Virus record (IMG/VR): IMGVR_UViG_3300045004_000088
Coordinates: 128,001 to 192,000 of that record
Strand: one strand, 5' to 3'
DNA from: a virus
DNA: 64,000 bases
Shown here one piece after another: positions 2,248 to 64,000 of this stretch; positions within the stretch are counted from its first letter, which is position 1; every line of letters begins with the position of its first letter. The notes beneath the pieces are model-generated. The model saw only the letters and a list, made by a program, of their open reading frames with translations, searched no databases and was not told the origin of the DNA. The position numbers and the translations under genes are program-made.

Positions 2248-3744
2248 ATGGACCAAATCGAACAAGCAAAAGAAATGATCAAGGCCGGAATCAAGCAGGC
2301 CACTCGCCTCTTTCACGAGGGCAACCTGCCCGGCTGCCTGATGCTGATCGGTCATATCCTCCAAATGGACCCTCACAACGACGACGCCCTACAAATCGCC
2401 GGGCTACTCAAACTGCGGGTCGAAGAAAAAGAAGAGGCGACCCGTCTGCTGACGCTGGCACGTCAGATCAATCCGGCCAACCCGGATCATCACAACAATC
2501 TCGCCGTGGCGTACTCCCGCGCCGGCAAATACGACGAATCGATTGCGTGCGTGCGTGACGCAATCGCTATCGCTCCGGGCAGACCCGTCTTCTGGACCAA
2601 TCTGGGAGTACAACTCAAAGGCAAAGCGGCCGGTAAAACCGGGGCGGAACGCGAATCCTTGCTTAACGAGTCTGAAGCCGCCTTCAACAAGGCGATGGAA
2701 CTCGATCCGAATGCCGCGACCGCGTTCGCAAACCTCGGCAGTCTCTCGGCCGAGCGACACCAAATGGGACGAGCCGCCGAGTTGATGGAAAAAGCTCTGG
2801 AGATCGATCCCAAACTTTCTGGCGTACACGTCGATCTGAGCTACGTCTACTTCCTGACCGGACAGTTCAAAAAGGGATGGCCTCACTACGAACACAGAAT
2901 GACACACTACCCGCAAGCCTCGCGGTGGGAGAAGGTGTTCCCAAGCAGCAAAAGATGGGACGGCCGCACCTCATTAGAAGGTAAAACCGTGGGCATCTTC
3001 TGCGAACAAGGGTGTGGTGACGCAATCCACTTTGCCAGATACATCCCGCTGATCAAGAAAATGGCGGGCGAAGTGTGGTTGTGTTGTCACGATCCTCTGA
3101 AGGGATTGATGTCGCAGTTCTGCGAAACGATCCCGATGTCTCAAAAGCCCCCCTATTACGACGTGTCGATCCCGATCATGTCGTTGCCTTACCTGTTAGG
3201 CGACCCGGAAACGCCCAACGTCTACATCGACACAAAGCCGGCAGACTTGTCCGTCTACGGCGGATTCAAGGTGGGGATCTGTTGGGCGGGGAACCCACAA
3301 CACCCCGGCGACCGATTCCGTTCGGTCCACCTGCGCGAGTTTTCGCCGTTGGCATTTGAAGGGGTGAAACTGTTCTCGCTTCAAAAAGACTACCGGCCCA
3401 GGAAGTACCACGATTCTGAGGATGTCATTGATTTGTGCAGTGACGGCCCGGCCGTGGTGGACCTCTCTCCGATGTTGAACAACTTCGATGACACCGCATC
3501 GTTCGTGGCGGGAATGGATCTGGTAATTTCGGTGGACACGGCGGTGATGCACTTGTCGGCGGCTATGGGTAAAGAGACGTGGGGTCTGATTCCGTACAAC
3601 CCCGATTGGCGATGGGGGTTGTACGGAAGCGATACGCCGCTTTACTCGAACTTGAAGTTGTTCCGCCAGACACAGAAGAACGATTGGCGGTCGGTGATGG
3701 GGGCGGTGGGAGCCAAGCTGCGAGAAAAGTTAAGCCCGCGATGA
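2248..3744 (+). CDS. TPR-repeat protein fused to a GT9-like (heptosyltransferase-family) glycosyltransferase domain
   Basis: 498-aa ORF. N-term TPR-like helices; C-term FCEQGCGDAIHFARYIPLI and GICWAGNPQHP motifs typical of TPR-GT9 proteins. Confidence 0.7.
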   Translation: MDQIEQAKEMIKAGIKQATRLFHEGNLPGCLMLIGHILQMDPHNDDALQIAGLLKLRVEEKEEATRLLTLARQINPANPDHHNNLAVAYSRAGKYDESIACVRDAIAIAPGRPVFWTNLGVQLKGKAAGKTGAERESLLNESEAAFNKAMELDPNAATAFANLGSLSAERHQMGRAAELMEKALEIDPKLSGVHVDLSYVYFLTGQFKKGWPHYEHRMTHYPQASRWEKVFPSSKRWDGRTSLEGKTVGIFCEQGCGDAIHFARYIPLIKKMAGEVWLCCHDPLKGLMSQFCETIPMSQKPPYYDVSIPIMSLPYLLGDPETPNVYIDTKPADLSVYGGFKVGICWAGNPQHPGDRFRSVHLREFSPLAFEGVKLFSLQKDYRPRKYHDSEDVIDLCSDGPAVVDLSPMLNNFDDTASFVAGMDLVISVDTAVMHLSAAMGKETWGLIPYNPDWRWGLYGSDTPLYSNLKLFRQTQKNDWRSVMGAVGAKLREKLSPR

Positions 3745-6893: not shown

Positions 6894-8108
6894 ATGAGTA
6901 GCCTGATCGTTCAAGTGTGCCGAGTCGATAAAGTCGAAGAACATCCCAACGCAGAAAAACTTGCCCTTGCAACAATCAAGGGCTGGAAAACCTGTATTCG
7001 TAAAGACGAAACCGGCACCCAGTTCAAAGAAGGCGATCTCTGCGTCTTCTTCCCGCCCGACGCCGTTCTCCCCAAAGAACTGTCGGATCGGCTCGGCGTC
7101 ACCAAGTACCTCAAGATGTTGGGCAAAGGCACGGACGGCAAGACCCCCGAAGGGGGCCGTGTGGCCGTTTCGCGTCTGCGCGGGCATCCGAGCTACGGGT
7201 TGATCTCCAAACTCGACATCCTGCCAGTCAAGATGAATCCCGACTTCTCAATGGCTTGGAAGCCGGGCGATGACGTGGCGTCCACTCTGGGCATTACCAA
7301 GTGGGAGCCGCCGATGACCTGTACGGACGGGGACGCAGAAAAGCCGCACCCGGCGTTCCACCGCTACTTCACACTCGAAAACTACCGCAACTTCCCCGAC
7401 TTGATTCCCAAAGGCAAGCGGGTCGTTTTCACCGAAAAGATCCACGGGAAGAACTGCCGCGTCGGACTGATCAAGGACACTGGCCCGGACGGTGAAATGG
7501 TCTGGACGTGGATGGCCGGTTCCCACGACGTTCGCCGCAAAGAGTTCGTCACCCGCAAGCGGAAGATCCACGACCGCGAAACGGGCGAAACAAAAACCGA
7601 AGAATACCAAGACAAGTCGCAGTTTTGGCAGGCTCTGGACCGGCCGGGCGTGCGCGACATGATCGACACCATCAGCGGCGGAAAGACGAGCGGTGGCTGC
7701 GTCGATAACGTCGTCGTCTTCGGCGAGATCTTCGGCAGCGGCGTTCAGGACATGGCCTACGGGATGGCGAACGGGAACTGGGACTTCCGCGTGTTCGACA
7801 TCACCGTCAACGGCAAGTACATGAGCTTCGCCGAGAAGATGAACTGGTGCCACATCCACGATGTCAAGATGGTGCCGATCCTGTACGAAGGCCCGTTCAG
7901 CGAGGAAGAGGTCGAGAAGTTCGTGGGCGGCAACACTACCGTCTGCTCATCGGAAGAGAACGGCAAGTTCAAGGGCCGCGAAGGGATCGTGATCACCAGC
8001 GAAATCGAAACTCAAGCCGTCACCCCGGAAAAGGTGTTCGACCGGATGGCACTCAAGGCCATCAACTTCGAGTACCTCGAACGCGCCGGCGGCACGGAAC
8101 ATCACTAA
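6894..8108 (+). CDS. RNA ligase (Rnl2-like nucleotidyltransferase) with N-terminal tRNA-binding OB-fold (Myf/Trbp111-like) domain
   Basis: N-term VEEHPNAEKLALATIKGW matches the tRNA-binding domain. KIHGKN matches Rnl2 motif I (KIHGTN); EGIV motif IV; LKAI motif V. Confidence 0.7.
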   Translation: MSSLIVQVCRVDKVEEHPNAEKLALATIKGWKTCIRKDETGTQFKEGDLCVFFPPDAVLPKELSDRLGVTKYLKMLGKGTDGKTPEGGRVAVSRLRGHPSYGLISKLDILPVKMNPDFSMAWKPGDDVASTLGITKWEPPMTCTDGDAEKPHPAFHRYFTLENYRNFPDLIPKGKRVVFTEKIHGKNCRVGLIKDTGPDGEMVWTWMAGSHDVRRKEFVTRKRKIHDRETGETKTEEYQDKSQFWQALDRPGVRDMIDTISGGKTSGGCVDNVVVFGEIFGSGVQDMAYGMANGNWDFRVFDITVNGKYMSFAEKMNWCHIHDVKMVPILYEGPFSEEEVEKFVGGNTTVCSSEENGKFKGREGIVITSEIETQAVTPEKVFDRMALKAINFEYLERAGGTEHH

Positions 8109-8931: not shown

Positions 8932-9291
8932 ATGAAGCACGAAACGACAATCGAATACTGCGACGGCAACTTGAAGCACCTCGCCGTCGATATTGCCAAC
9001 CTGCAATACGACGCACTGCAAGACTTTTTGCTGTCGCTCGCGGAAAAACTTGAGAAAGACGCCGAGGCCGACCGAACCAGAAATCGGCCTATACTGTCCT
9101 CTCGATTGGAAGCGGCGGCGAGAAACATCGAAGACGCAGCCAGGGCGATTGCTCTGGCTTGGAAAATCTGCAAGCCTCATGTGGAGAACCAAGATGGAAA
9201 GCGATGCTCTGGGCGACCGGATGAAGATGTACGAGCGTGCGGGAACTGCGGAACGGTTCATGCCGCTTCTGCCAGTGATGGCACGAATTGA
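8932..9291 (+). CDS. hypothetical protein (uncertain; 3' end overlaps the Thg1-like gene)
   Basis: 119-aa ORF, ATG overlapping the upstream stop (TAAATG); the last ~100 nt overlap the 9194 start. Confidence 0.3.
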   Translation: MKHETTIEYCDGNLKHLAVDIANLQYDALQDFLLSLAEKLEKDAEADRTRNRPILSSRLEAAARNIEDAARAIALAWKICKPHVENQDGKRCSGRPDEDVRACGNCGTVHAASASDGTN

Positions 9292-10015
9292 CGGTCGCGC
9301 CTTCCACAGCTTCGTTCGCGGTCTGGAACGCCCCTACGATCAGCGCCTGAGTCAGATGATGATCGACACCACCAAGTACCTCGTCAAAGAGACTGCGGCG
9401 GTGATGGGCTACTGCCAGAGCGACGAGATCGGCCTGTGCTGGTACAGCGGCAACCCGGAAACCCAGATCTACTTCGACGGCCGCGTGGCGAAGATGATCA
9501 GTCAACTGGCCGCACAGACCAGCGTGTACTTCTACCGCCTGTGCGTGGACCGCCTGCCACCGGAGTACGCCGCGAAGATGCCGACCTTCGACTGTCGGTG
9601 CTGGACCGTGCCGAACTTCAACGAAGCCGCGAACACCTTCCTCTGGAGGGAGTTGGACGCGAGCAAGAACTCGATCTCGATGGCGGCGCGGAGCGTGTAC
9701 TCGCACAAGGCGTTGGAGAACAAGAACGGGTCGGAGATGCAGGAGATGCTCTGGCAGAAGGGCGTCAACTGGAACGACTACCCCCGGTTCTTCAAGCGGG
9801 GAACCTTCATCCAGCGGCAGATCGTGACCCGGAAGTTCACCACCGACGAACTCGACAAGTTGCCGCCGCAGCACGAGGCCCGGCACAACCCGGAACTGAC
9901 CTACGAGCGGTCGGACTACGTCGAACTGGACATGCCGCCCTTCAACAAGGTGGCGAACCGAGCGGCGGTCATCTTCGAGGGTGCCAAGCCGCAACTCTAC
10001 TCGTGTGCCGGGTGA
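9194..10015 (+). CDS. Thg1-like protein (tRNA-His guanylyltransferase family 3'-5' nucleotidyltransferase)
   Basis: GGAG RBS. VMARIDGRAFHSF matches the Thg1 VVVRLDGRNFHRF motif; GYCQSDE matches the GxSDE metal site. Confidence 0.7.
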   Translation: MESDALGDRMKMYERAGTAERFMPLLPVMARIDGRAFHSFVRGLERPYDQRLSQMMIDTTKYLVKETAAVMGYCQSDEIGLCWYSGNPETQIYFDGRVAKMISQLAAQTSVYFYRLCVDRLPPEYAAKMPTFDCRCWTVPNFNEAANTFLWRELDASKNSISMAARSVYSHKALENKNGSEMQEMLWQKGVNWNDYPRFFKRGTFIQRQIVTRKFTTDELDKLPPQHEARHNPELTYERSDYVELDMPPFNKVANRAAVIFEGAKPQLYSCAG

Positions 10016-51395: not shown

Positions 51396-53648
51396 TTACA
51401 GGGTGCAGGCACCGGAAGCACATCCGTCCTTCTCTTTGGCGAAGTGCTTGTTGCCGTCTTCGGTGTTGAGGTAGTAGAGCGACTTGCCGCCCGACTTGTA
51501 GAAGTGGATCATCTCCTTGATGATCTGCATGTACGGGATCTTCTTGTCCTCGTAGTTGGACGGGTTGAAATACTGGTTGCAACTCATCGCCATGTCCATC
51601 CACTTCTGGATGACGGCGCAGACGTTGAGGTAGCCGATGTTGTCGGGCATATCGAACGCCAACTGGTAGTGTTCGGCCGACTTGACGTTCGGAACCAAGA
51701 ACGGCAGGCTCGACTTCTTGGAACTCTTGAACGCCAAGATCGACCGCACGGGTTCGACGCCGTTGGTGACGTTCTGCGAAGCCGCCGACGACTCGCACGG
51801 CATCTGGCACGTCAGCGTGGTGTGCCGCATGCCGTGTTCCTTCAACTCGGCGCGTAGCGACTCCCAGTCCATGCCCGCCGGACGGTTGGTCGGAAGGTCT
51901 TTGAACTTCTTGTCAACAGGCAGCCAGCCGTTGGAATACTTGGACGACGCGAACTTGTCGCACACGCCCTTCTCTTTCGCCAAGTTGATCGACGCTTTGA
52001 TGAGGTAATACTGCTGCTTCTCCATCCACTCGTCCACCAGATCTAGTGCGGCCGGGTCGCCGTACTTCACCTTGTTCGACGCGAGGAACGCGGCGAGGTT
52101 GGTGATGCCGATGCCGAGAGATCGCTTGCCCGTGCAGAAGTTGCGGGCCGCGAGATCGAAGTAGTCTTGGATGTCGATCAACTCGTCCAGCATACGCACG
52201 ACGCAGTCGCAAACCCGCGCGAAGTCCTCGTCGGAAGTGATCTCCAACCAGTTGATGGCCGACAGCACGCACACGCCGATTTCTGACAGCGGGTCGTTGA
52301 TGGCGCGGAGCGGCTCGACGGCTTGTGTGACCTCCGTGCAGAGGTTGGTCATGTTGACCTTTTCGTTCCACGACCCGTAGGTGTTGACGTTGTCCACGTT
52401 GAAGATGTAGATGCGGCCGGACTCCAACCGCTCTTTCACGAGCAGCGAGAACAGGTCGCGGGCCGGCACGGAGTGGCGGCTCTTGATCGACTCGTCCTTC
52501 TCGTACTTCTGGTACAACTCATCGAACTCGTCGGTGCCGAAGGCGTCGTACAAGCCGGGGACTTCGTGCGGCGAAAACAGGGTGATGTTCTCTTTCTTCA
52601 GGAACCGCTCGTAGAACAACCGGGACAGACCGATGGCGTAGTCCAAGTTGAAGACGCGGTTGTCGTGGGTGCCGGTGGTCGCGTTCTTCAACTGGATGAT
52701 GTTCTCGATCTCGTAGTGCCAGATCGGGAAGTTGATGGTGGACGAGCCGCCGCGCACGCCGTTCTTCTGCCACGCCTTCGTGTTGGCCTCGGTGATCTTC
52801 AAAAACGGAATGACGCCGGGGTGCAGAATCGTACCGTTCTTGACGGGCGTGTTGATGGCCCGCATGCGCCCGTAGTTGACGCCGATGCCGTACCCCTTGC
52901 ACGTCGCTTCCGCGACCGCGTTGTTGGTGGCGTTGATCGAGTCGCAGGTGTCGAGCATCTCGATGAGGCAGCACGACGCGAACGAGTTGTTGTTCGTACC
53001 CAAACCGGCCAACTGCGGGGTGGCGAGGTTGATCTTGAACTTGCTGAAATAGTTGTAGGCCCGCTTCACCATCGGCAGCCGCTTCGCCGCCGGGTAGCGG
53101 TGGAAGATGGTCATCGCAGCGACGATGTAACGGAACTGCGGAGTCTCGTGAAGTTCCTTCGTGTGCTGGTTCTTAACGAGGTACTTGTCGCACAACTGCT
53201 TGGTAGAGCAGAACGTGTACGTCAGGTCGCGGTCGTGAACGATGAACTCATCGATCTTGTTGATCTCTACGTCGGTGTACCACTCCATCAGGTCTTTGGT
53301 GTAGTACCCATTTTTGATGTTCTGGCGGATCAAATCGATCAGCTTCGGCGGGTTCTTACCGCCCCACACGTTCTTGCGGATCTGGTAGTTCAGAAGCCGA
53401 CCCGCGACGTACTGGTAGTCCGGGTTTTGCTCGCTGATGAGGTTCGTCGCCGAGTCGATCAGAACGGAGTGGATCTGTTCCGTCGTGATGCCATCGACCA
53501 CATTGAGCTTCATGTTGATCTCAATGTCGGAAACGCTGACGTTCGACAGCCCCTCGATTGCCCACGAAACCACTCGACTGATCTTCTCGATCTCGAAGTT
53601 CTCCCGCGACCCGTTTTTCTTCACCACACTGATCTTATTTACAGACAT
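51396..53648 (-). CDS. nrdA: ribonucleotide reductase class Ia large subunit
   Basis: 750 aa; N-term ATP-cone; catalytic core; C-term ...GCASGACTL; AGGAGA RBS. Confidence 0.85.
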   Translation of the reverse strand: MSVNKISVVKKNGSRENFEIEKISRVVSWAIEGLSNVSVSDIEINMKLNVVDGITTEQIHSVLIDSATNLISEQNPDYQYVAGRLLNYQIRKNVWGGKNPPKLIDLIRQNIKNGYYTKDLMEWYTDVEINKIDEFIVHDRDLTYTFCSTKQLCDKYLVKNQHTKELHETPQFRYIVAAMTIFHRYPAAKRLPMVKRAYNYFSKFKINLATPQLAGLGTNNNSFASCCLIEMLDTCDSINATNNAVAEATCKGYGIGVNYGRMRAINTPVKNGTILHPGVIPFLKITEANTKAWQKNGVRGGSSTINFPIWHYEIENIIQLKNATTGTHDNRVFNLDYAIGLSRLFYERFLKKENITLFSPHEVPGLYDAFGTDEFDELYQKYEKDESIKSRHSVPARDLFSLLVKERLESGRIYIFNVDNVNTYGSWNEKVNMTNLCTEVTQAVEPLRAINDPLSEIGVCVLSAINWLEITSDEDFARVCDCVVRMLDELIDIQDYFDLAARNFCTGKRSLGIGITNLAAFLASNKVKYGDPAALDLVDEWMEKQQYYLIKASINLAKEKGVCDKFASSKYSNGWLPVDKKFKDLPTNRPAGMDWESLRAELKEHGMRHTTLTCQMPCESSAASQNVTNGVEPVRSILAFKSSKKSSLPFLVPNVKSAEHYQLAFDMPDNIGYLNVCAVIQKWMDMAMSCNQYFNPSNYEDKKIPYMQIIKEMIHFYKSGGKSLYYLNTEDGNKHFAKEKDGCASGACTL

Positions 53649-58969: not shown

Positions 58970-59458
58970 ATGCCAAAGAAAAGAAACTGGACCGACGAGC
59001 AATTGAAGGAAGCTGTTGCTACTTCGTTCTCGTACTCAGAAGTGTTGAGAAAACTGAAGTTGAAGTTCGCTGGCGGAACTCACGCGGCGATCAAGCAAAA
59101 AGTGAAGTGGTTGAAACTCAATGTTTCGCATTTCACAGGCAGTAGTTGGTGTCGAGGTGAGAAGTACCGACAAACGCTACTGAAAAGGAACACCCGAACA
59201 CTGGAAGAGATCTTGGTAAAAGACTCGACCTATCAATCGGGGGCGAAGCTGAAAAAGAGGCTGGTGACGGCGGGAATTTTGAAAGACATCTGCTGCCAGT
59301 GTGGGAATGAAGGTGTGTGGTGCGGTCAAGCTCTGACGTTACAGCTTGATCACAAGAATGGCGACCGGACTGATCACAGGTTAGAAAACCTCCGAGTGAT
59401 ATGTCCAAACTGTCATTCGCAGACACCTAACTTTGCTGGACGTAACGCGAAGAAGTAA
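58970..59458 (+). CDS. HNH homing endonuclease
   Basis: LQLDHKNGDRTDHRLENLRVICPNCH; GGAGGAAAC RBS; stop abuts the tRNA-Leu start. Confidence 0.65.
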   Translation: MPKKRNWTDEQLKEAVATSFSYSEVLRKLKLKFAGGTHAAIKQKVKWLKLNVSHFTGSSWCRGEKYRQTLLKRNTRTLEEILVKDSTYQSGAKLKKRLVTAGILKDICCQCGNEGVWCGQALTLQLDHKNGDRTDHRLENLRVICPNCHSQTPNFAGRNAKK

Positions 59459-59540
59459 GCGGTTGTGGCGAAATTGGTAGACGCGCGGTCTTCAGATGGC
59501 CGTCCCGCAAGGGGTGTGGGTTCGACTCCCACCAACCGCA
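59459..59540 (+). tRNA. tRNA-Leu(CAG), type II
   Basis: Acceptor GCGGTTG/CAACCGC. Anticodon stem CGGTC/GGCCG with loop TTCAGAT. Long variable arm. T-arm GTGGG-TTCGACT-CCCAC. No encoded CCA. Confidence 0.7.
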
Positions 59541-59607
59541 CTGTAAGACCCGGCAACGGGTGTTCTTTGACAACTGGGCGAGACAACAAGCGGTTCTCGG
59601 AGCAGCT

Positions 59608-59862
59608 ATGAAAAACGTTTGGTTGGAATTTTTGCAGTTGAAGACCGATTTCCCGCTCGGATCGTGGGTACAAATGACACTCGATCCTTTGGACGATTAC
59701 TTTGAATCGATCTGGGCTTCTGATATGATGGGGGTAGTGACGGGGTACAACATCATGCAGTCACTGGTGGTGGTGTACTTCGACAACAACGTCACGATGC
59801 AGTGCGGCCCGAAACTACTGAAGGTCGTTGAAAGCCCTTTGGTCCATGACTGGGACATGTGA
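59608..59862 (+). CDS. small hypothetical protein
   Basis: Met 17 of ORF 59560..59862 with GGAGCAGC RBS. Confidence 0.45.
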   Translation: MKNVWLEFLQLKTDFPLGSWVQMTLDPLDDYFESIWASDMMGVVTGYNIMQSLVVVYFDNNVTMQCGPKLLKVVESPLVHDWDM

Positions 59863-60092
59863 AAATGACGGACAAAGAAGAGATCGAGATCCTTCAGGCT
59901 CGTATCGATGAGTTGAAGGGGGTAAAGAGCGGCCCGCCGAAGTGTTTCCACTGTGGCGGGAGCGGCGAGGTCGCGTGGGAAGGAACCTGCTACTACTGCG
60001 TGGGGAGCGGTTACTGCTACCCACCGAACGATCCCAACCATTGGAGCAACAAGAAAGAAGAAAACGGACCTTATTACGATCAGGTCTGGTGA
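59859..60092 (+). CDS. small Cys-rich protein
   Basis: CFHCGGSG...CYYCVGSGYC; start overlaps the upstream stop. Confidence 0.45.
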   Translation: MKMTDKEEIEILQARIDELKGVKSGPPKCFHCGGSGEVAWEGTCYYCVGSGYCYPPNDPNHWSNKKEENGPYYDQVW

Positions 60093-60097
60093 GATAA

Positions 60098-60179
60098 GCC
60101 AAAGTGACGGAAATGGCAGACGTACTCCGCTCAAAACGGAGCGCCGCAAGGCGTGTGGGTTCGATTCCCACCTTTGGCA
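60098..60179 (+). tRNA. tRNA-Leu(CAA), type II
   Basis: Acceptor GCCAAAG/CTTTGGC. Anticodon stem CTCCG/CGGAG with loop CTCAAAA. Variable arm CGCCGCAAGGCGTGT. T-arm GTGGG-TTCGATT-CCCAC. Confidence 0.7.
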
Positions 60180-60185
60180 CTAACT

Positions 60186-60266
60186 GTACCGGCTGAACAT
60201 GGGCGAGTTCCCCTGGCTGTAACCCAGGTGCCTTCGGCTGTAGAGGTTCGACTCCTCTCCGGTACA
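60186..60266 (+). tRNA. tRNA-Tyr(GTA), type II
   Basis: Acceptor GTACCGG/CCGGTAC. D-stem GAA/TTC. Anticodon stem CCTGG/CCAGG with loop CTGTAAC. Variable arm contains a GCC-TTCG-GC tetraloop hairpin. T-arm AGAGG-TTCGACT-CCTCT. Confidence 0.65.
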
Positions 60267-60268
60267 CT

Positions 60269-60486
60269 GCATCCGCAACGGAATAGCCTTGATCGGTCTT
60301 GGGATAATTAACAAGGTGCTGCTCGATAAGTAGCGAAAGCTACCGCTTGCGGGCGTAAGGTCGGGGTGCAAGTATCGACCTCAAGACGGCGGATGCAATC
60401 GGGTGTCGATCCACACGGCAGACTGTAAATCTGCTGCCATTATCCTGTGTGGCGGTCGGCGATGGGTTCAACTCCTACGGCACCCA
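60269..60486 (+). ncRNA. unresolved structured RNA: 128-nt helix-closed domain with GNRA tetraloops plus a tRNA-like 3' part
   Basis: GCATCCGC (60269-76) pairs with GCGGATGC (60389-96) around GTAGC-GAAA-GCTAC and C-GTAA-G. The 3' part has GGGTGTC/GGCACCC acceptor-like ends and GCAGA-CTGTAAA-TCTGC, but no room for a D-arm. Confidence 0.3.
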
Positions 60487-60499
60487 CTGGAGACTCGCG

Positions 60500-61018
60500 A
60501 TGAGCGACATGATGGAACTTCTGGCGAAACGGTACGCCGAACCCGATCTGAACCCGTATCTTTTCGAGATCGGACAAAAGGTGAGGCTCCGCAAGGGCCG
60601 CTCGAACGACGGGCAGACGCCTCAACATTGGGACGGGGCAGTCGCAACAGTCGAAAGTCGATACTGCACCGGACTCCACAAGGAACACTGGTACAAGTTG
60701 AGACACTCGAACGGCCAACTGGCAGAGTTCTGCGAAGACGAGATCGACGCACGCTACGCGCGGCGGCGAGTCAACTTCAAAGAAGTTCTGGCCGAGGAGA
60801 ACCCGAAAGCCATCGTGTTTGACGGACTCGAAGAAGCCATGATCGGCGTCGGCGGTCAAACGACGCAGAGGCTCGCGGTCTACAGTGTCCGAAAGATCAT
60901 GGAACTGCTCAGGCAGAAACACGGCGACGAACAAGCGGCCCAAGAGTGGTTCGACTTCAACATCGCGACCCTCTGGGCCGGCGAGAATACTCCGATCTTG
61001 GTGTACGATGAAGTCTGA
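60500..61018 (+). CDS. hypothetical protein
   Basis: Met 18 of ORF 60449..61018 with GGAGACTCGCG RBS. Confidence 0.5.
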   Translation: MSDMMELLAKRYAEPDLNPYLFEIGQKVRLRKGRSNDGQTPQHWDGAVATVESRYCTGLHKEHWYKLRHSNGQLAEFCEDEIDARYARRRVNFKEVLAEENPKAIVFDGLEEAMIGVGGQTTQRLAVYSVRKIMELLRQKHGDEQAAQEWFDFNIATLWAGENTPILVYDEV

Positions 61019-61280
61019 AGACAATCTGCGGGTGGCTCCTCACGAGGAAACACCCAGGCAGAAGTATCTGTGTGACAACGCGAGACACCTGATCTGCGTG
61101 CCGTATTCCATTGATAATCTGCACAAGATGGCGGCAGATTTGGGAATCAAGAAGTGCTGGTTCCACAAGGACCATTACGACATTCCGAAGCGACGGATCG
61201 CCGAGATCACCGCGAAGTGCGAGGTCGTGGACAGCCGAGAAATCGTCAAGATCGTGAGGCCGAAGAACTCTGCGAAGTGA
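61008..61280 (+). CDS. hypothetical protein
   Basis: Met 42 of ORF 60885..61280; overlaps the upstream gene end by 11 nt. Confidence 0.45.
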   Translation: MKSEDNLRVAPHEETPRQKYLCDNARHLICVPYSIDNLHKMAADLGIKKCWFHKDHYDIPKRRIAEITAKCEVVDSREIVKIVRPKNSAK

Positions 61281-61289
61281 TAGAAATTT

Positions 61290-61371
61290 GGGTCTGCTAA
61301 CGCTGTGGGAAGCTACGTTGACTGTAAATCAGCCGCCTTCGGGATAAGAGGTTCGATTCCTCACAGACCCA
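61290..61371 (+). tRNA. tRNA-Tyr(GTA), second copy, slightly non-canonical D region
   Basis: Acceptor GGGTCTG/CAGACCC. Anticodon stem GTTGA/TCAGC with loop CTGTAAA. Variable arm has a CC-TTCG-GG hairpin. T-arm GAGG-TTCGATT-CCTC. Confidence 0.5.
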
Positions 61372-61377
61372 CTGAAT

Positions 61378-61452
61378 GCCTACCAAATGCTAATCTAGTG
61401 AAAGCTTAGGTTTGAAAAACCTAGTAGCCCGGAGCGTAACCGGGGGTAGGCA
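61378..61452 (+). tRNA. tRNA-like, possibly tRNA-Phe(GAA) with non-canonical T-loop
   Basis: Acceptor GCCTACC/GGTAGGC. D-stem GCT/AGC. Anticodon stem TAGGT/ACCTA with loop TTGAAAA. T-arm CCCGG-AGCGTAA-CCGGG lacks TTC. One to two extra nt at positions 8-10. Confidence 0.3.
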
Positions 61453-61471
61453 CTAGCCAGTATGCTCGTTC

Positions 61472-61542
61472 GGGATTACATGACAATTGGTTAAGTCGGG
61501 GAACTCAAATTCCCTATAGCTGGTTCAAATCCAGCGTATATC
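61472..61542 (+). tRNA. tRNA-like fragment or pseudo-tRNA (anticodon-like loop ACTCAAA, intact T-arm, no pairing acceptor)
   Basis: GGGGA-ACTCAAA-TTCCC hairpin plus canonical T-arm GCTGG-TTCAAAT-CCAGC. The 3' flank GTATATC does not complement the 5' GGGATTA. Confidence 0.25.
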
Positions 61543-61566
61543 TCGTGCAAATTTTGACTGGCAACT

Positions 61567-61639
61567 GCCGCGCAGGTGTAAAGGGTAGACACGCTTCCCT
61601 GAAAAGGAAGAGGACTCGGTTCGACTCCGAGGGGCGGCA
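61567..61639 (+). tRNA. tRNA-Phe(GAA)
   Basis: Acceptor GCCGCGC/GGGCGGC (one G-G mismatch). D-stem GTGT/ACAC. Anticodon stem CTTCC/GGAAG with loop CTGAAAA. T-arm CTCGG-TTCGACT-CCGAG. Confidence 0.65.
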
Positions 61640-61740
61640 CTTGAATAGTTTCGGCCTATGGCTGAAGAACGCCAAACCGTTGTCAGATAGACGCCAGAGG
61701 TGACTAGATTTTAGTAGGTGGTCCCTACTAGGAGTCAGTC

Positions 61741-61947
61741 ATGAACATCGACAACGTGAAGAGTGGCGTGAGCAAAGAGGAAGTCATGAGGCTGCTGCGT
61801 GCGGCCGGCATGCTCCAAGACTCGACGCCGGTGAAGCTGCAACAGATGCGGGCGGTTCGCGTGTCGCGGCCGGAACCCCGGCCCGAACACGAAGAACTCG
61901 GCATGAGCCACAGCGAGTGGTTCCGCCGCTACGTCAGCGACTGGTAA
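61741..61947 (+). CDS. small hypothetical protein
   Basis: GGAG RBS downstream of a TAGTAGG/CCTACTA hairpin. Confidence 0.45.
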   Translation: MNIDNVKSGVSKEEVMRLLRAAGMLQDSTPVKLQQMRAVRVSRPEPRPEHEELGMSHSEWFRRYVSDW

Positions 61948-62178
61948 TCACTTCCCGGCAACGAGCTTGCGGAGGTCGCTGGACGACTTAGACGGGTTAC
62001 GGATGATTTCTTTCACCAGTTCCTCGCCTTTGGAACTGGTGATCTTCGACCAGACCTTTTCGAGCGTGGTGCGGTTGTACTTCTTGACCAGCTTCTTCAG
62101 CCCGTCGATAAAGTCCTCGACGGCTTCGATGTCGCTGCTGCCCGTACCCGACTCGACAAATTGACGAAACGATTGCAT
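61948..62178 (-). CDS. small hypothetical protein
   Basis: 76-aa ORF with GGAGGG RBS; convergent with 61741..61947. Confidence 0.5.
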   Translation of the reverse strand: MQSFRQFVESGTGSSDIEAVEDFIDGLKKLVKKYNRTTLEKVWSKITSSKGEELVKEIIRNPSKSSSDLRKLVAGK

Positions 62179-62193
62179 AGACCCTCCAGTCTA

Positions 62194-62237
62194 TGTATCG
62201 ACTCGGAAGGAAAATATGTATCGACTCGGAAGGAAAA
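62194..62237 (+). repeat. tandem direct repeat 2 x tgtatcgactcggaaggaaaa (period 23); second copy forms the 5' end of tRNA-Ser(GGA)
   Basis: Exact duplication, visible in the sequence. Confidence 0.5.
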
Positions 62238-62313
62238 CCGGATGGGTGTCCGGCATCGCCTGGAAAGTGATTGGTGCCTTAAACGGCATGGGGATCGATA
62301 CCTCTTCCTTCCG
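62228..62313 (+). tRNA. tRNA-Ser(GGA), type II, non-canonical (T-loop ATCGATA, 4-bp T-stem)
   Basis: Acceptor GGAAGGA/TCCTTCC (7/7). D-arm CCGG-ATGGGTGT-CCGG. Anticodon stem ATCGC/GTGAT with loop CTGGAAA. Variable hairpin GTGCC-TTAAAC-GGCAT. T-arm GGGG-ATCGATA-CCTC. Confidence 0.5.
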
Positions 62314-62416
62314 CTATGTGTGACTGCAAAATGTGTCGGGCGCGGAAACGCAAAAAGCTCATCGACACGCTCCATTCAAAAGGCGTCATCCTCGTACACA
62401 GGGGCGAAGACTTTCT

Positions 62417-62728
62417 ATGCCAAACAAGTTCGAGGGCCGCTGGCGTTGGTGCAACCACTGCCAGTGCGCGAGAATCCGATGCTTCAAGTGCGGCAACATC
62501 TCGTGTAGCGGCGGCGGATGCGTCGAGTGCCACGACGAATTCACCGAAGCGATCAGAATGAGCGGCACGGGCGAACACCCTAGCAAAGAAGAACTCCTCG
62601 CCGACACCGAAGGCATTAGAATTGATGCCGAGTGGGGCGAAAAGGTATGGGACGCATGGTCGAGTACACAATCAAAAAAGGCAGCAAGCACCAGAACAGA
62701 CGGTGCGGCTACTGCGACGGGCGAATGA
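62417..62728 (+). CDS. Cys-rich small protein (uncertain; overlapping alternative ORFs)
   Basis: Met 29 of ORF 62333..62728; CNHCQCARIRCFKCGNISCSGGGCVEC; tail low-complexity. Confidence 0.35.
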   Translation: MPNKFEGRWRWCNHCQCARIRCFKCGNISCSGGGCVECHDEFTEAIRMSGTGEHPSKEELLADTEGIRIDAEWGEKVWDAWSSTQSKKAASTRTDGAATATGE

Positions 62729-62871
62729 CGCCCGGCCGCAAGTTCGTACTCGACCCGGAACGGTACGAAAACCAACTGCCAATGATCTTCCACCCGCAGT
62801 GCCGCGAAGCGTGGGTGAAGCGTGGCAAACAACCGCTGTGCCGAGGTAACTGTGACACTGTACATGCTTGA
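62656..62871 (+). CDS. small Cys-containing hypothetical protein
   Basis: Internal Met of ORF 62632..62871; CGYCDG...CREAW...CRGNC. Confidence 0.4.
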   Translation: MVEYTIKKGSKHQNRRCGYCDGRMTPGRKFVLDPERYENQLPMIFHPQCREAWVKRGKQPLCRGNCDTVHA

Positions 62872-63052
62872 GTGGTACAACGGCCTCGAATACGCAGACG
62901 CCGAGACGACACTGTTGGGCGTTTATCGAAGTGAAGAAACGCGATCCGAGGCCGAACAACGGTATCGCGAGTCGGAGGAACGTTGGCCCTTCACTAGCAA
63001 GGAAGGGAAGTTCGTGAAGTGGGAGATCCAGTTGGACAAGGATCTGGTGTGA
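62864..63052 (+). CDS. small hypothetical protein
   Basis: Met 15 of ORF 62822..63052; ATGCTTGA overlap with the upstream stop. Confidence 0.4.
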   Translation: MLEWYNGLEYADAETTLLGVYRSEETRSEAEQRYRESEERWPFTSKEGKFVKWEIQLDKDLV

Positions 63053-63055
63053 TAC

Positions 63056-63140
63056 GGAAGGGACTGTGAGTGGCTACACGACTTTGTTTGCTAAACAAAG
63101 ATACGGCAACGTATTGCGGGTTCGACGCCCGCTCCTTCCG
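63056..63140 (+). tRNA. tRNA-Ser(GCT), type II, with extended 6-bp anticodon stem
   Basis: Acceptor GGAAGGG/TCCTTCC. D-stem TGTG/CACG. Anticodon stem CTTTGT/ACAAAG with loop TTGCTAA. Variable hairpin ATACG-GCAA-CGTAT. T-arm GCGGG-TTCGACG-CCCGC. Confidence 0.6.
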
Positions 63141-63143
63141 CTC

Positions 63144-63233
63144 GGCTCTGTGCGCTAAATGGTAAAGCGGCAAGTTTCAAAAACTTGTGTCTCCCCGCGT
63201 GGGAAATTATCGGTTCGAGTCCGATCAGAGCCA
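63144..63233 (+). tRNA. tRNA-Leu(CAA), second copy, type II
   Basis: Acceptor GGCTCTG/CAGAGCC. D-stem CGC/GCG. Anticodon stem CAAGT/ACTTG with loop TTCAAAA. 21-nt variable arm. T-arm ATCGG-TTCGAGT-CCGAT. Confidence 0.65.
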
Positions 63234-63244
63234 CTTGAATCTTT

Positions 63245-63272
63245 TTGTCTTGTTCTGACAGTACACTAGAAT
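63245..63272 (+). promoter_or_regulatory. sigma70-like promoter candidate TTGTCT-16-TAGAAT
   Basis: Upstream of the HNH-AP2 gene, which has a GGAGG RBS. Confidence 0.3.
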
Positions 63273-63287
63273 GTAGTGGAGGTCATA

Positions 63288-63719
63288 ATGAACAAATACA
63301 GCAAAAAGAAATCCGATCAGCTAGGTGTCAACTTCAGTACGGCGTGCCACACTTTGAGGAAGTGTGTAATGTTCTCTCTGCTGAAAGAAGCCAAGAAAAA
63401 CGTTTGCTTCAGGTGCGGCAAGGCAATTCAGACTGCCGAAGAACTGAGTCTTGACCACAAAGAAGATTGGCTTGACAAGACCAACGCCAAAGAACTCTTC
63501 TTCGATTTGACCAACGTGGCCTACAGCCACCGCCGCTGCAATACTTTGGCGATGTTGGACAAACGCACACAGTTTCGCGGTGTGACCAAGATGGGTGGTA
63601 AAAAGAAACGTAAAAAGCCATATACGGCTCGCTGGTGGGATGGGACCAAGCAGGTGCATATCGGGTATTTCGCGACGGCCGAGGAAGCACAGAAAGCATT
63701 AGAAGAAAGGTCCAAATGA
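63288..63719 (+). CDS. HNH endonuclease with C-terminal AP2 DNA-binding domain
   Basis: LSLDHKEDW...NV..SHRRCN HNH; FRGVTKMGGKKKRKKPYTARWWDGTKQVHIGYFATAEEAQKA AP2-like; lower GC. Confidence 0.65.
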   Translation: MNKYSKKKSDQLGVNFSTACHTLRKCVMFSLLKEAKKNVCFRCGKAIQTAEELSLDHKEDWLDKTNAKELFFDLTNVAYSHRRCNTLAMLDKRTQFRGVTKMGGKKKRKKPYTARWWDGTKQVHIGYFATAEEAQKALEERSK

Positions 63720-63919
63720 ACGCACAATACGTTTGCAACAAGTGTGGGGAACCGGCAGAAATGGATACTCGCATGGGTGGTGGAGACGTGTACCTAACAT
63801 GCGGGTGCGACAGAAATGGGGAATGGGTCGATGACGGTCGCGGTGGGTATTACGACACCGACGCACAGCCAGTTCTCGTGCAAGAACCGAAAATGCAAAA
63901 ACCAAAAAAGGAAGATTAA
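63716..63919 (+). CDS. small zinc-ribbon protein
   Basis: ATGA overlap; AAAGG RBS; CNKCG...CGCDRNG. Confidence 0.45.
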   Translation: MNAQYVCNKCGEPAEMDTRMGGGDVYLTCGCDRNGEWVDDGRGGYYDTDAQPVLVQEPKMQKPKKED

Positions 63920-63994
63920 CCGGACGGGGTCCGGCACCGCCTCGAAAGCGGTTGGTGCCTTAACGGGCATGGGGATCGATACCTCAGTCTTCCG
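63910..63994 (+). tRNA. tRNA-Ser(CGA), type II, paralog of the 62228 tRNA with the same non-canonical T-loop
   Basis: Acceptor GGAAGAT/GTCTTCC. D-arm CCGG-ACGGGGT-CCGG. Anticodon stem ACCGC/GCGGT with loop CTCGAAA. Compensatory changes relative to the 62228 copy. T-arm GGGG-ATCGATA-CCTC. Confidence 0.5.
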
Positions 63995-64000
63995 CTCACG

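Follow-up and report, generated by a model that had tools for sequence, protein, structure and literature searches.

Two phage serine tRNA genes with an 8/4 acceptor/T branch in a tRNA cluster of a contractile-tailed phage

Two serine tRNA genes and their fold

The 64,000 nucleotides (nt) of viral DNA analysed here (the window; positions 128,001 to 192,000 of IMG/VR record IMGVR_UViG_3300045004_000088) have a GC content of 56% and belong to a contractile-tailed phage that encodes a tail sheath, ribonucleotide reductase subunits, CTP synthase, an SbcC-like nuclease and an RNA ligase. Within a cluster of 11 tRNA or tRNA-like genes, the window contains two genes for serine tRNAs, one with the anticodon GGA (copy 1) and one with the anticodon CGA (copy 2), whose coordinates are collected in Table 1. 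The initial annotation of this DNA had described them as paralogous, non-canonical tRNA-Ser genes of about 85% identity, and the positions and plus strand that it gave for both hold; in a global alignment the copies agree at 72 of 86 aligned positions (83.7%), and a repeat finder pairs them at 86% identity over 71 nt. That annotation had overlooked an acceptor stem of eight base pairs (bp), and the shape that it took for idiosyncratic had already been described in 2017 as that of the (8/4) tRNA-Ser subgroup of the allo-tRNAs (PMC5389517; Mukai et al., Nucleic Acids Res 2017). The copies are genuine phage serine tRNA genes of this published class and not a new kind of RNA.

When each copy is folded alone, the same clean cloverleaf is returned as both the minimum free energy (MFE) and the centroid structure, with all stems fully paired. 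The predicted cloverleaf comprises an 8-bp acceptor stem, a 2-nt linker, a 6-bp D-stem with a loop of 3-4 nt, a 5-bp anticodon stem with a 7-nt loop, a variable arm of 5-6 bp, and a 4-bp T-stem with a 7-nt loop that abuts the 3' strand of the acceptor directly. The acceptor/T branch of both copies is consequently 12 bp long, split 8/4 rather than 7/5. Copy 2 follows the layout of copy 1 except for a 3-nt D-loop and a variable stem of 6 bp instead of 5 bp, and all 28 stem pairs are intact in both. The anticodons, at 62262-62264 and 63943-63945, sit in the 7-nt loops CUGGAAA and CUCGAAA, which follow the ordinary pattern C32 U33 NNN A37 A38, and both decode serine, as originally proposed. Also borne out is the T-arm, which is common to the two copies and consists of a GGGG/CCUC stem (4 bp, one of them G.U) and the loop AUCGAUA. 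The elements of the tRNA elbow, GG in the D-loop and U55-C56 in the T-loop, are kept in both. Each copy ends in a G discriminator (62313 in copy 1, 63994 in copy 2) followed by a CT trailer, and neither encodes CCA.

Going from copy 1 to copy 2, the anticodon stem changes from U-A to C-G at pair 2 and from G.U to G-C at pair 4, which are the compensatory changes already reported; to these we add acceptor pairs 6 (G-C/A-U), 7 (A-U/U.G) and 8 (A-U/U-A) and D-stem pair 6 (U.G/C-G). Changes are compensated in four stem pairs, which argues for selection on structure since the duplication that gave rise to the two genes. The first 10 nt of the CGA tRNA overlap the 3' end, stop codon included, of an open reading frame (ORF). 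This small CxxC ORF (63716-63919, plus strand) lies upstream of the tRNA, with its stop codon within tRNA positions 8-10. Public gene calls also place a 35-amino-acid (aa) ORF directly on top of the GGA tRNA (62216-62323, plus strand), which is probably spurious.

Standard tools do not recognise either gene. ARAGORN calls six tRNAs in the window, all within 59459-63234, and neither 8/4 copy is among them. Rfam matched neither copy at its gathering score, nor at E values up to 10 over 59000-64000, the models RF00005 and RF01852 included. By contrast, a covariance model of the 8/4 family (R1) scores the GGA and CGA copies at 91.6 and 91.7 bits, and a leave-out model built from other contigs, with no window sequences (R2), scores them at 92.7 bits (E 8e-22) and 92.3 bits (E 1e-21). 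A search of the window with R1 returned these two as its only full family members. The canonical tRNA-Ser(GCU) of the same cluster, in which the eighth pair is mismatched, scores no more than 27.5 (R1) and 36.7 bits (R2).

Table 1. Coordinates of the serine tRNA genes, their parts and associated features. Positions are those of the window unless contig L112 is named.
Feature	Position	Strand	Remarks
(8/4) tRNA-Ser, anticodon GGA (copy 1)	62228-62313	+	86 nt; MFE fold, R1 and R2 scores
(8/4) tRNA-Ser, anticodon CGA (copy 2)	63910-63994	+	85 nt; MFE fold, R1 and R2 scores
Copy 1 acceptor stem	62228-62235 with 62305-62312	+	followed by AA linker
Copy 1 D-arm	62238-62253	+	6 bp, 4-nt loop
Copy 1 anticodon arm	62255-62271	+	
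Copy 1 variable arm	62274-62289	+	
Copy 1 T-arm	62290-62304	+	loop AUCGAUA at 62294-62300
Exact 23-nt tandem duplication, TATGTATCGACTCGGAAGGAAAA x2	62192-62237 (62192-62214 and 62215-62237)	+	Tandem Repeats Finder
Canonical 7/5 tRNA-Ser(GCU)	63056-63140	+	ARAGORN call; GGAAG acceptor start, G discriminator, CT trailer
8/4 tRNA-Ser(GCU)	L112 1095-1179	-	5 nt after copy 2; T-loop AUCGUCC, stem GUGG/CCAC
8/4 tRNA-Ser(UGA)	L112 826-911	-	beyond the GCU gene; T-loop AUCGACA; encodes CCA
Divergent 76-aa ORF	61948-62178	-	GGAGG ribosome-binding site; adjoins first Ser tRNA

Covariation, codon match and distribution of the family

A 16-mer shared by the T-arms of the two copies, TGGGGATCGATACCTC, occurs at 104 sites, two in the window and 102 in 98 viral contigs. 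Full tRNAs of 8/4 shape account for 92 of these sites and chance matches for about 12, so that the ATCGATA T-loop is a family signature at no fewer than 92 viral sites. Searching the same viral contigs with R1 brought out many further members that lack the exact 16-mer, and the T-loops of members without the searched T-arm sequence are a mixture of UUCGA-type and A54-type. Among 133 family sequences the GGA and CGA copies are each other's nearest relatives (82.6% identity, as against 78% or less to any other), and the term "paralogous" is therefore justified.

In a MAFFT alignment of 62 distinct relatives, 96.3% of the cells are paired and the covariation score is 0.748, where shuffled sequences give 0.200 and slid partners no more than 0.134. 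The eighth pair of the acceptor is intact in 62 of 62 relatives and is formed by UA in 32, AU in 15, GC in 14 and CG in one. In a larger set of 105 distinct sequences, whose alignment was fitted to the covariance model and hence leans towards structure, the same pair is intact in all 105 with four pair types, and all four pairs of the T-stem covary. The six D-stem pairs covary in both alignments. Every one of the 105 carries a serine anticodon (UGA 39, GCU 30, CGA 18, GGA 18), and 90 of them have a G discriminator.

Two other ways of explaining these patterns were rejected. The copies might be drawn with a conventional 7/5 branch, but the fifth T-stem pair that this demands (column 67 with column 83) forms in only 33 of the 62 relatives; it is possible for copy 2 (U-A), and is ruled out by copy 1 (U.U) together with the family counts. 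A protein-coding constraint from an overlapping ORF, the alternative that the initial annotation had named for the covariation, is excluded by the lengths of the relatives (82-89 nt), by variable-arm indels that are not multiples of three and by the concentration of changes in compensated stem pairs.

The window holds only part of the set. Two longer, identical public contigs, L112 and L113, run beyond position 64000 and carry two further 8/4 genes, with the anticodons GCU and UGA (Table 1), so that the phage possesses four 8/4 isoacceptors and one canonical tRNA-Ser(GCU). The four 8/4 isoacceptors between them cover all six serine codons. Within the window, the tRNA-Ser anticodons CGA, GCU and GGA read UCG, AGC and UCC, which crude codon counts give as the three commonest serine codons of the phage (28%, 22% and 18%).

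Several cultivated phages carry the same genes. Four family members each are found in Xanthomonas phage BUDD, Myxococcus phage Mx1 and Caulobacter phage BL57, and together with Rhodococcus phage REQ2 these four phages contain 14 members (2-4 apiece), of which ARAGORN calls five and the GenBank records annotate none as tRNA. In BL57 a large tRNA cluster is annotated without any tRNA-Ser, and the 8/4 genes (record positions 52295-53196) occupy a stretch of it that has no annotation. More widely, matches lie at places without a tRNA annotation in isolated phages of Xanthomonas, Stenotrophomonas, Myxococcus, Caulobacter, Rhodococcus, Phaeobacter and Rhodobacter, and in DSS3_MAL1, whose record gives no host. 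Outside viral records the pattern is rare: in a set of 185,579 species with one genome apiece, the T-arm pattern extended by NNNNNNCCG occurs at eight places, where about four would be expected by chance, and the four true matches are all on short contigs of metagenome-assembled genomes bearing clusters of 2-4 such genes. A metagenome DNA scan for near-identical copies gave no matches.

A related jumbo phage provides a comparison. The 262-kb viral contig L111 encodes a homolog, 62% identical, of the 76-aa protein whose gene adjoins the first Ser tRNA in both phages and so serves as an anchor of synteny. Cluster order is alike in the two (Leu, Leu, three Tyr, Phe, the 76-aa gene, Ser genes), and in both the Ser genes are separated by the same small "MVEY" ORF. 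At the syntenic site, however, L111 has four canonical 7/5 tRNA-Ser genes, which ARAGORN calls and which score only 30-40 bits with R1. The presence of 8/4 genes in the one phage and 7/5 genes in the other, at the same locus, indicates that structural sets have been exchanged. The 76-aa protein itself is encoded identically on 10 public contigs (exact-protein lookup), and a metagenome protein scan with it found no relatives.

The tRNA cluster and the duplication before the GGA gene

CT directly follows the discriminator in all 11 tRNA or tRNA-like genes of the cluster (59459-63994), against a background CT frequency of 0.052, and also follows the four Ser tRNAs of L111. This common trailer ties the 8/4 copies to bona fide tRNAs, and it may represent a shared 3'-processing signature. 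CCA is encoded by none of the 11 genes, which suggests that it is added after transcription.

Small zinc-ribbon-like ORFs and HNH endonuclease genes are interspersed in the cluster. HNH-type, homing-endonuclease-like ORFs lie among the tRNA genes at 58970-59458 and 63276-63719 (both plus strand), and 11 other viral loci have homologs of the former close to their 8/4 tRNA genes. On both L112 (1-225, minus strand) and L111 (~3100-3430, minus strand), the cluster also contains the gene of a small protein with a tRNA-binding domain (PF01588, Trbp111/CsaA-like). Elsewhere in the window, a Thg1-domain protein resembling the tRNA-His guanylyltransferase type of 3'-5' polymerase (8993-10012, plus strand; PF04446, E 2.3e-26) lies two genes downstream of the RNA ligase (6894-8105, plus strand; PF09414 with a PHA02142 OB fold, phrog_968), and the two together could form a tRNA repair cassette.

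Several other cluster members also depart from the usual tRNA form. A tRNA-like element at 60401-60486 (plus strand), at which ARAGORN makes no call, combines a GUA anticodon with an 8-bp acceptor (GGGUGUCG/CGGCACCC) and a T-stem of 4 bp, and lacks a normal D-arm; it corresponds to an ARAGORN-called tRNA-Tyr of L111, relative to which its D-arm has lost about 10 nt and its variable region has gained about 14 nt. Two further genes on the plus strand are not called by ARAGORN: a Tyr(GUA) tRNA gene at 61290-61371, ortholog of L111 4513-4595, and a Phe(GAA)-type gene at 61378-61452 with the T-loop AGCGUAA and a fold z-score of -3.4, whose L111 ortholog has the T-loop AUCGAAA. There is possibly another degenerate element at 61455-61540.

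The GGA gene is preceded by an exact 23-nt tandem duplication, which Tandem Repeats Finder reports as the highest-scoring tandem repeat of the window (period 23, 2.0 copies, 100% identity, score 92) and for which shuffled sequence gives 0.00 expected matches. Each unit consists of a 13-nt leader and GGAAGGAAAA, the 8-nt 5' strand of the acceptor plus the AA linker of the GGA tRNA, and the second unit runs into the tRNA itself. The initial annotation was right about the exact repeat and its copying of the acceptor 5' strand; the start coordinate that it gave, 62194, is 2 nt inside the repeat, which begins at 62192. The duplication and the GGA gene recur in four public contigs from four samples; these are 100% identical to the window across the region, and so the persistence of the duplication says nothing about selection. 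No comparable duplication is present in the upstream flanks of the listed family members.

In a folding model, the consequences of the duplication depend on where the transcript starts. If the upstream unit is transcribed and free it captures the 3' strand of the acceptor (P above 0.99; -40.9 vs -36.5 kcal/mol), with 13 more upstream nt included the ensemble is 63% native and 37% alternative, and with a start in the second unit the native fold accounts for 99.9%. The predicted misfold is driven by pairing of the leader sequence GTATCGA with UCGAUAC of the T-loop. We take this complementarity to be chance, as it occurs in none of the upstream flanks of the listed family members.

It is probable that the duplication is a slippage-type scar without a required function. 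A functional role, either as a doubled promoter-like element or as a competing 5' strand that tunes the amount of mature tRNA-Ser(GGA), seems unlikely to us, although the range of the folding model, from more than 99% misfolded to more than 99% native according to transcript start, would suit the second version and the recurrence in four samples also counts in favour of a role. The first version draws on the hexamer TATGTA, found 7 nt before the start of the tRNA in each repeat unit (62192-62227) and, in L111 (3981-4000), 8 nt before the first Ser tRNA; this hexamer might be a -10-like element. Against this, a scan of 59000-64000 for sigma-70 promoters and terminators found nothing upstream of either copy, with total hits at chance level and the sole terminator-like match being a D-arm read on the opposite strand. 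The leader motif GTATCGAC was likewise rejected as a recurring promoter or processing signal; it occurs at four sites in the window where 1.4 are expected, and the duplication itself supplies two of these. The identity of the four contigs and the flanks of the listed family members, noted above, also tell against a function.

Probable serine decoding, its rivals and the known classes

Taken together, the sequence, fold, covariation, family membership, serine anticodons and codon match lead us to conclude, with a probability of roughly 0.8, that the GGA and CGA copies are both functional genes for serine tRNAs in a contractile-tailed phage and belong to the (8/4) tRNA-Ser subgroup of allo-tRNAs. 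From this evidence we infer their processing, charging and use in translation. In this model, the 8/4 genes would be transcribed within the phage tRNA cluster, and, as neither copy encodes CCA, finishing would proceed by 3' trimming and CCA addition. One base pair has been shifted from the T-stem (from 5 to 4 bp) to the acceptor stem (from 7 to 8 bp), such that the stacked acceptor/T helix stays at its normal 12 bp and the length of the L-shape is unchanged. The long variable arm, G73 and an acceptor start of G1-C72, G2-C71 and A3-U70 should permit charging by the host seryl-tRNA synthetase. EF-Tu and the ribosome should then accept the charged tRNAs, by analogy with other 8/4 allo-tRNAs, those of serine identity having been shown to undergo processing and charging in E. 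coli and to serve in its translation (PMC5389517). The four-gene 8/4 set would thereby supplement decoding of the phage's own preferred serine codons.

A number of points weigh against this interpretation. The Ser-identity allo-tRNAs assayed in PMC5389517 had non-serine anticodons and were not phage (8/4) tRNA-Ser, and in E. coli some allo-tRNA subgroups showed no activity. A canonical tRNA-Ser(GCU) is retained in the phage as well, which means that the 8/4 set is not strictly required for AGC and AGU. The serine codon frequencies derive from a crude longest-ORF gene call, and according to the folding model a transcribed duplicate of the 5' strand could cause the GGA precursor to misfold. Lastly, the anticodon stem of the window copies has 5 bp, and the C and U that flank it cannot pair in either copy, whereas the text of PMC5389517 ascribes a longer stem to allo-tRNAs generally.

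The initial annotation had suggested that non-canonical phage tRNAs may evade host tRNA-targeting nucleases. In its fuller form, this idea holds that the 8/4 geometry, possibly in combination with the A54 T-loop, lets the phage's serine tRNAs escape a host defence that inactivates canonical tRNA-Ser (a nuclease, or a nucleotidyltransferase of MenT/AbiE type), the canonical set having been swapped out. We regard it as improbable. The contrast with L111 demonstrates that whole sets do get exchanged, and very few copies of the exact T-arm variant lie outside viral DNA (92 viral sites, compared with the four true matches in 185,579 species' genomes). Furthermore, phage tRNAs can counter tRNA-targeting defences (PMC10264068, PMC11555353), MenT3 prefers tRNA-Ser by way of the length and orientation of its variable arm (PMC11541572), and the RNA ligase and Thg1-like protein of the phage are of kinds that serve in tRNA repair, a hint of conflict over tRNAs. 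However, nothing in our analysis links the 8/4 shape to any nuclease or to resistance, the anticodon loops are canonical where the published route of evasion is through anticodon-loop changes (PMC10264068), and the variable arm read by MenT3 is still present. Nor do the RNA ligase, Thg1-like and tRNA-binding proteins consistently co-occur with 8/4 genes: in a tblastn search of 111 loci with such genes, limited by their short flanks, we found the Thg1-like protein at one locus, the RNA ligase at nine, the tRNA-binding-domain protein at one and the HNH proteins at 2-11. The shape is also not specific to phages, since 8/4 tRNA-Ser genes occur in bacteria (PMC5389517). Evasion of host tRNA-targeting nucleases is therefore unsupported.

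A variant of the same idea treats the four-gene 8/4 set as an exchangeable module, whose altered acceptor/T geometry and variable-arm orientation resist a tRNA-Ser-directed defence of MenT/AbiE type or VapC type. This would account for the near-confinement of the genes to viral DNA, for their conservation across phages of unrelated hosts and for the canonical genes of a close relative at the same place, but we give it little credence as well.

It is very unlikely that the copies are instead tRNA-like RNAs that act outside translation, as decoys or regulatory RNAs, or that they are decaying pseudogenes. Allo-tRNAs of the UAU type and polycistronic irregular allo-tRNAs are inactive in E. coli and have been suggested to be non-translational (PMC5389517), the cluster contains at least one rearranged tRNA-like copy (60401-60486, with the D-arm lost), and the duplication could impair maturation of the GGA gene. 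Decay is difficult to reconcile with the complete set of stem pairs, the compensated changes between the copies and the retained elbow elements, and a non-decoding RNA need not keep a serine anticodon in 105 of 105 relatives, or anticodons that match the phage's preferred serine codons.

The reading of the copies as functional serine tRNA genes has consequences beyond this phage. To the two genes first annotated, our analysis adds the 8-bp acceptor stem, the described class to which they belong and two further members past the end of the window. It also brings to light an annotation gap in cultivated phages, a full four-gene set, a contrast between 8/4 and 7/5 genes, and an exact 5'-strand duplication of the GGA gene. 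The 8/4 tRNA-Ser class is still systematically missed in annotation, and phage tRNA counts and analyses of codon compensation consequently under-report serine. The carriers include phages that can be cultivated (Xanthomonas BUDD and X1, Myxococcus Mx1, Caulobacter BL57 and Rhodococcus REQ2), in which the reason for using an 8/4 serine tRNA is open to experiment, and the window phage and L111 offer a ready-made natural contrast at one locus.

Compared with the canonical class II tRNA-Ser of the window and the four of L111, the copies share serine anticodons, a long variable arm, G73, the GGAAG acceptor start, the CT trailer and a place in the same cluster. The canonical genes differ in their 7-bp acceptor, 5-bp T-stem, UUCGA-type T-loop, U8-type linker and D-stem of 3-4 bp; they are called by ARAGORN and score only 27-40 bits with the 8/4 models. 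A canonical 7/5 identity for the copies is rejected on the lack of an RF00005 match at E values up to 10, the lack of an ARAGORN call and a T-loop that begins with A.

Bacterial tRNA-Sec (Rfam RF01852) is charged by seryl-tRNA synthetase and has an 8-bp acceptor, a 6-bp D-stem with a small loop and a long variable arm, all of which are structural features of the window copies too. Its branch, however, has 13 bp (8/5) and its anticodon is UCA; selenocysteine identity is excluded by the 12-bp branch and GGA and CGA anticodons of the copies, with no match to RF01852 at E values up to 10. The T-loop of eukaryotic cytoplasmic initiator tRNA, AUCGAAA, likewise has A54 and A60. Its likeness to AUCGAUA is a resemblance only, the window copies being elongator-type serine tRNAs of a bacteriophage, unlike the eukaryotic initiator.

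The closest counterparts are the allo-tRNAs, which have 8/4 or 9/3 branches, a long variable arm, G73 or U73 and a tRNA-Sec-like D-arm (PMC5389517). The selC* tRNA-Cys described in the same paper share with our copies a tRNA-Sec-like frame and, in some members, a modified 8/4 branch, but have U73, GCA or UCA anticodons, a bulged A51a and linkage to selB* or cysS*, none of which applies to the window copies. Agreement with the (8/4) tRNA-Ser subgroup extends to the 12-bp branch split 8/4, the long variable arm, G73, the tRNA-Sec-like D-arm with a long stem and a loop of 3-4 nt, the serine anticodons, the invisibility to standard tRNA models and the occurrence in phage tRNA clusters, where PMC5389517 places this subgroup; the bacterial 8/4 tRNA-Ser genes of that study are from proteobacteria and rumen Clostridia. 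Within the window no (8/4) tRNA-His accompanies the copies, and their A54...A60 T-loop (AUCGAUA) with its invariant GGGG/CCUC stem does not appear in the text of PMC5389517. The hosts inferred from isolated phages that carry relatives, namely Xanthomonas, Stenotrophomonas, Myxococcus, Rhodococcus, Caulobacter and the Roseobacter group, extend the class more widely than the alpha-proteobacterial phages named there.

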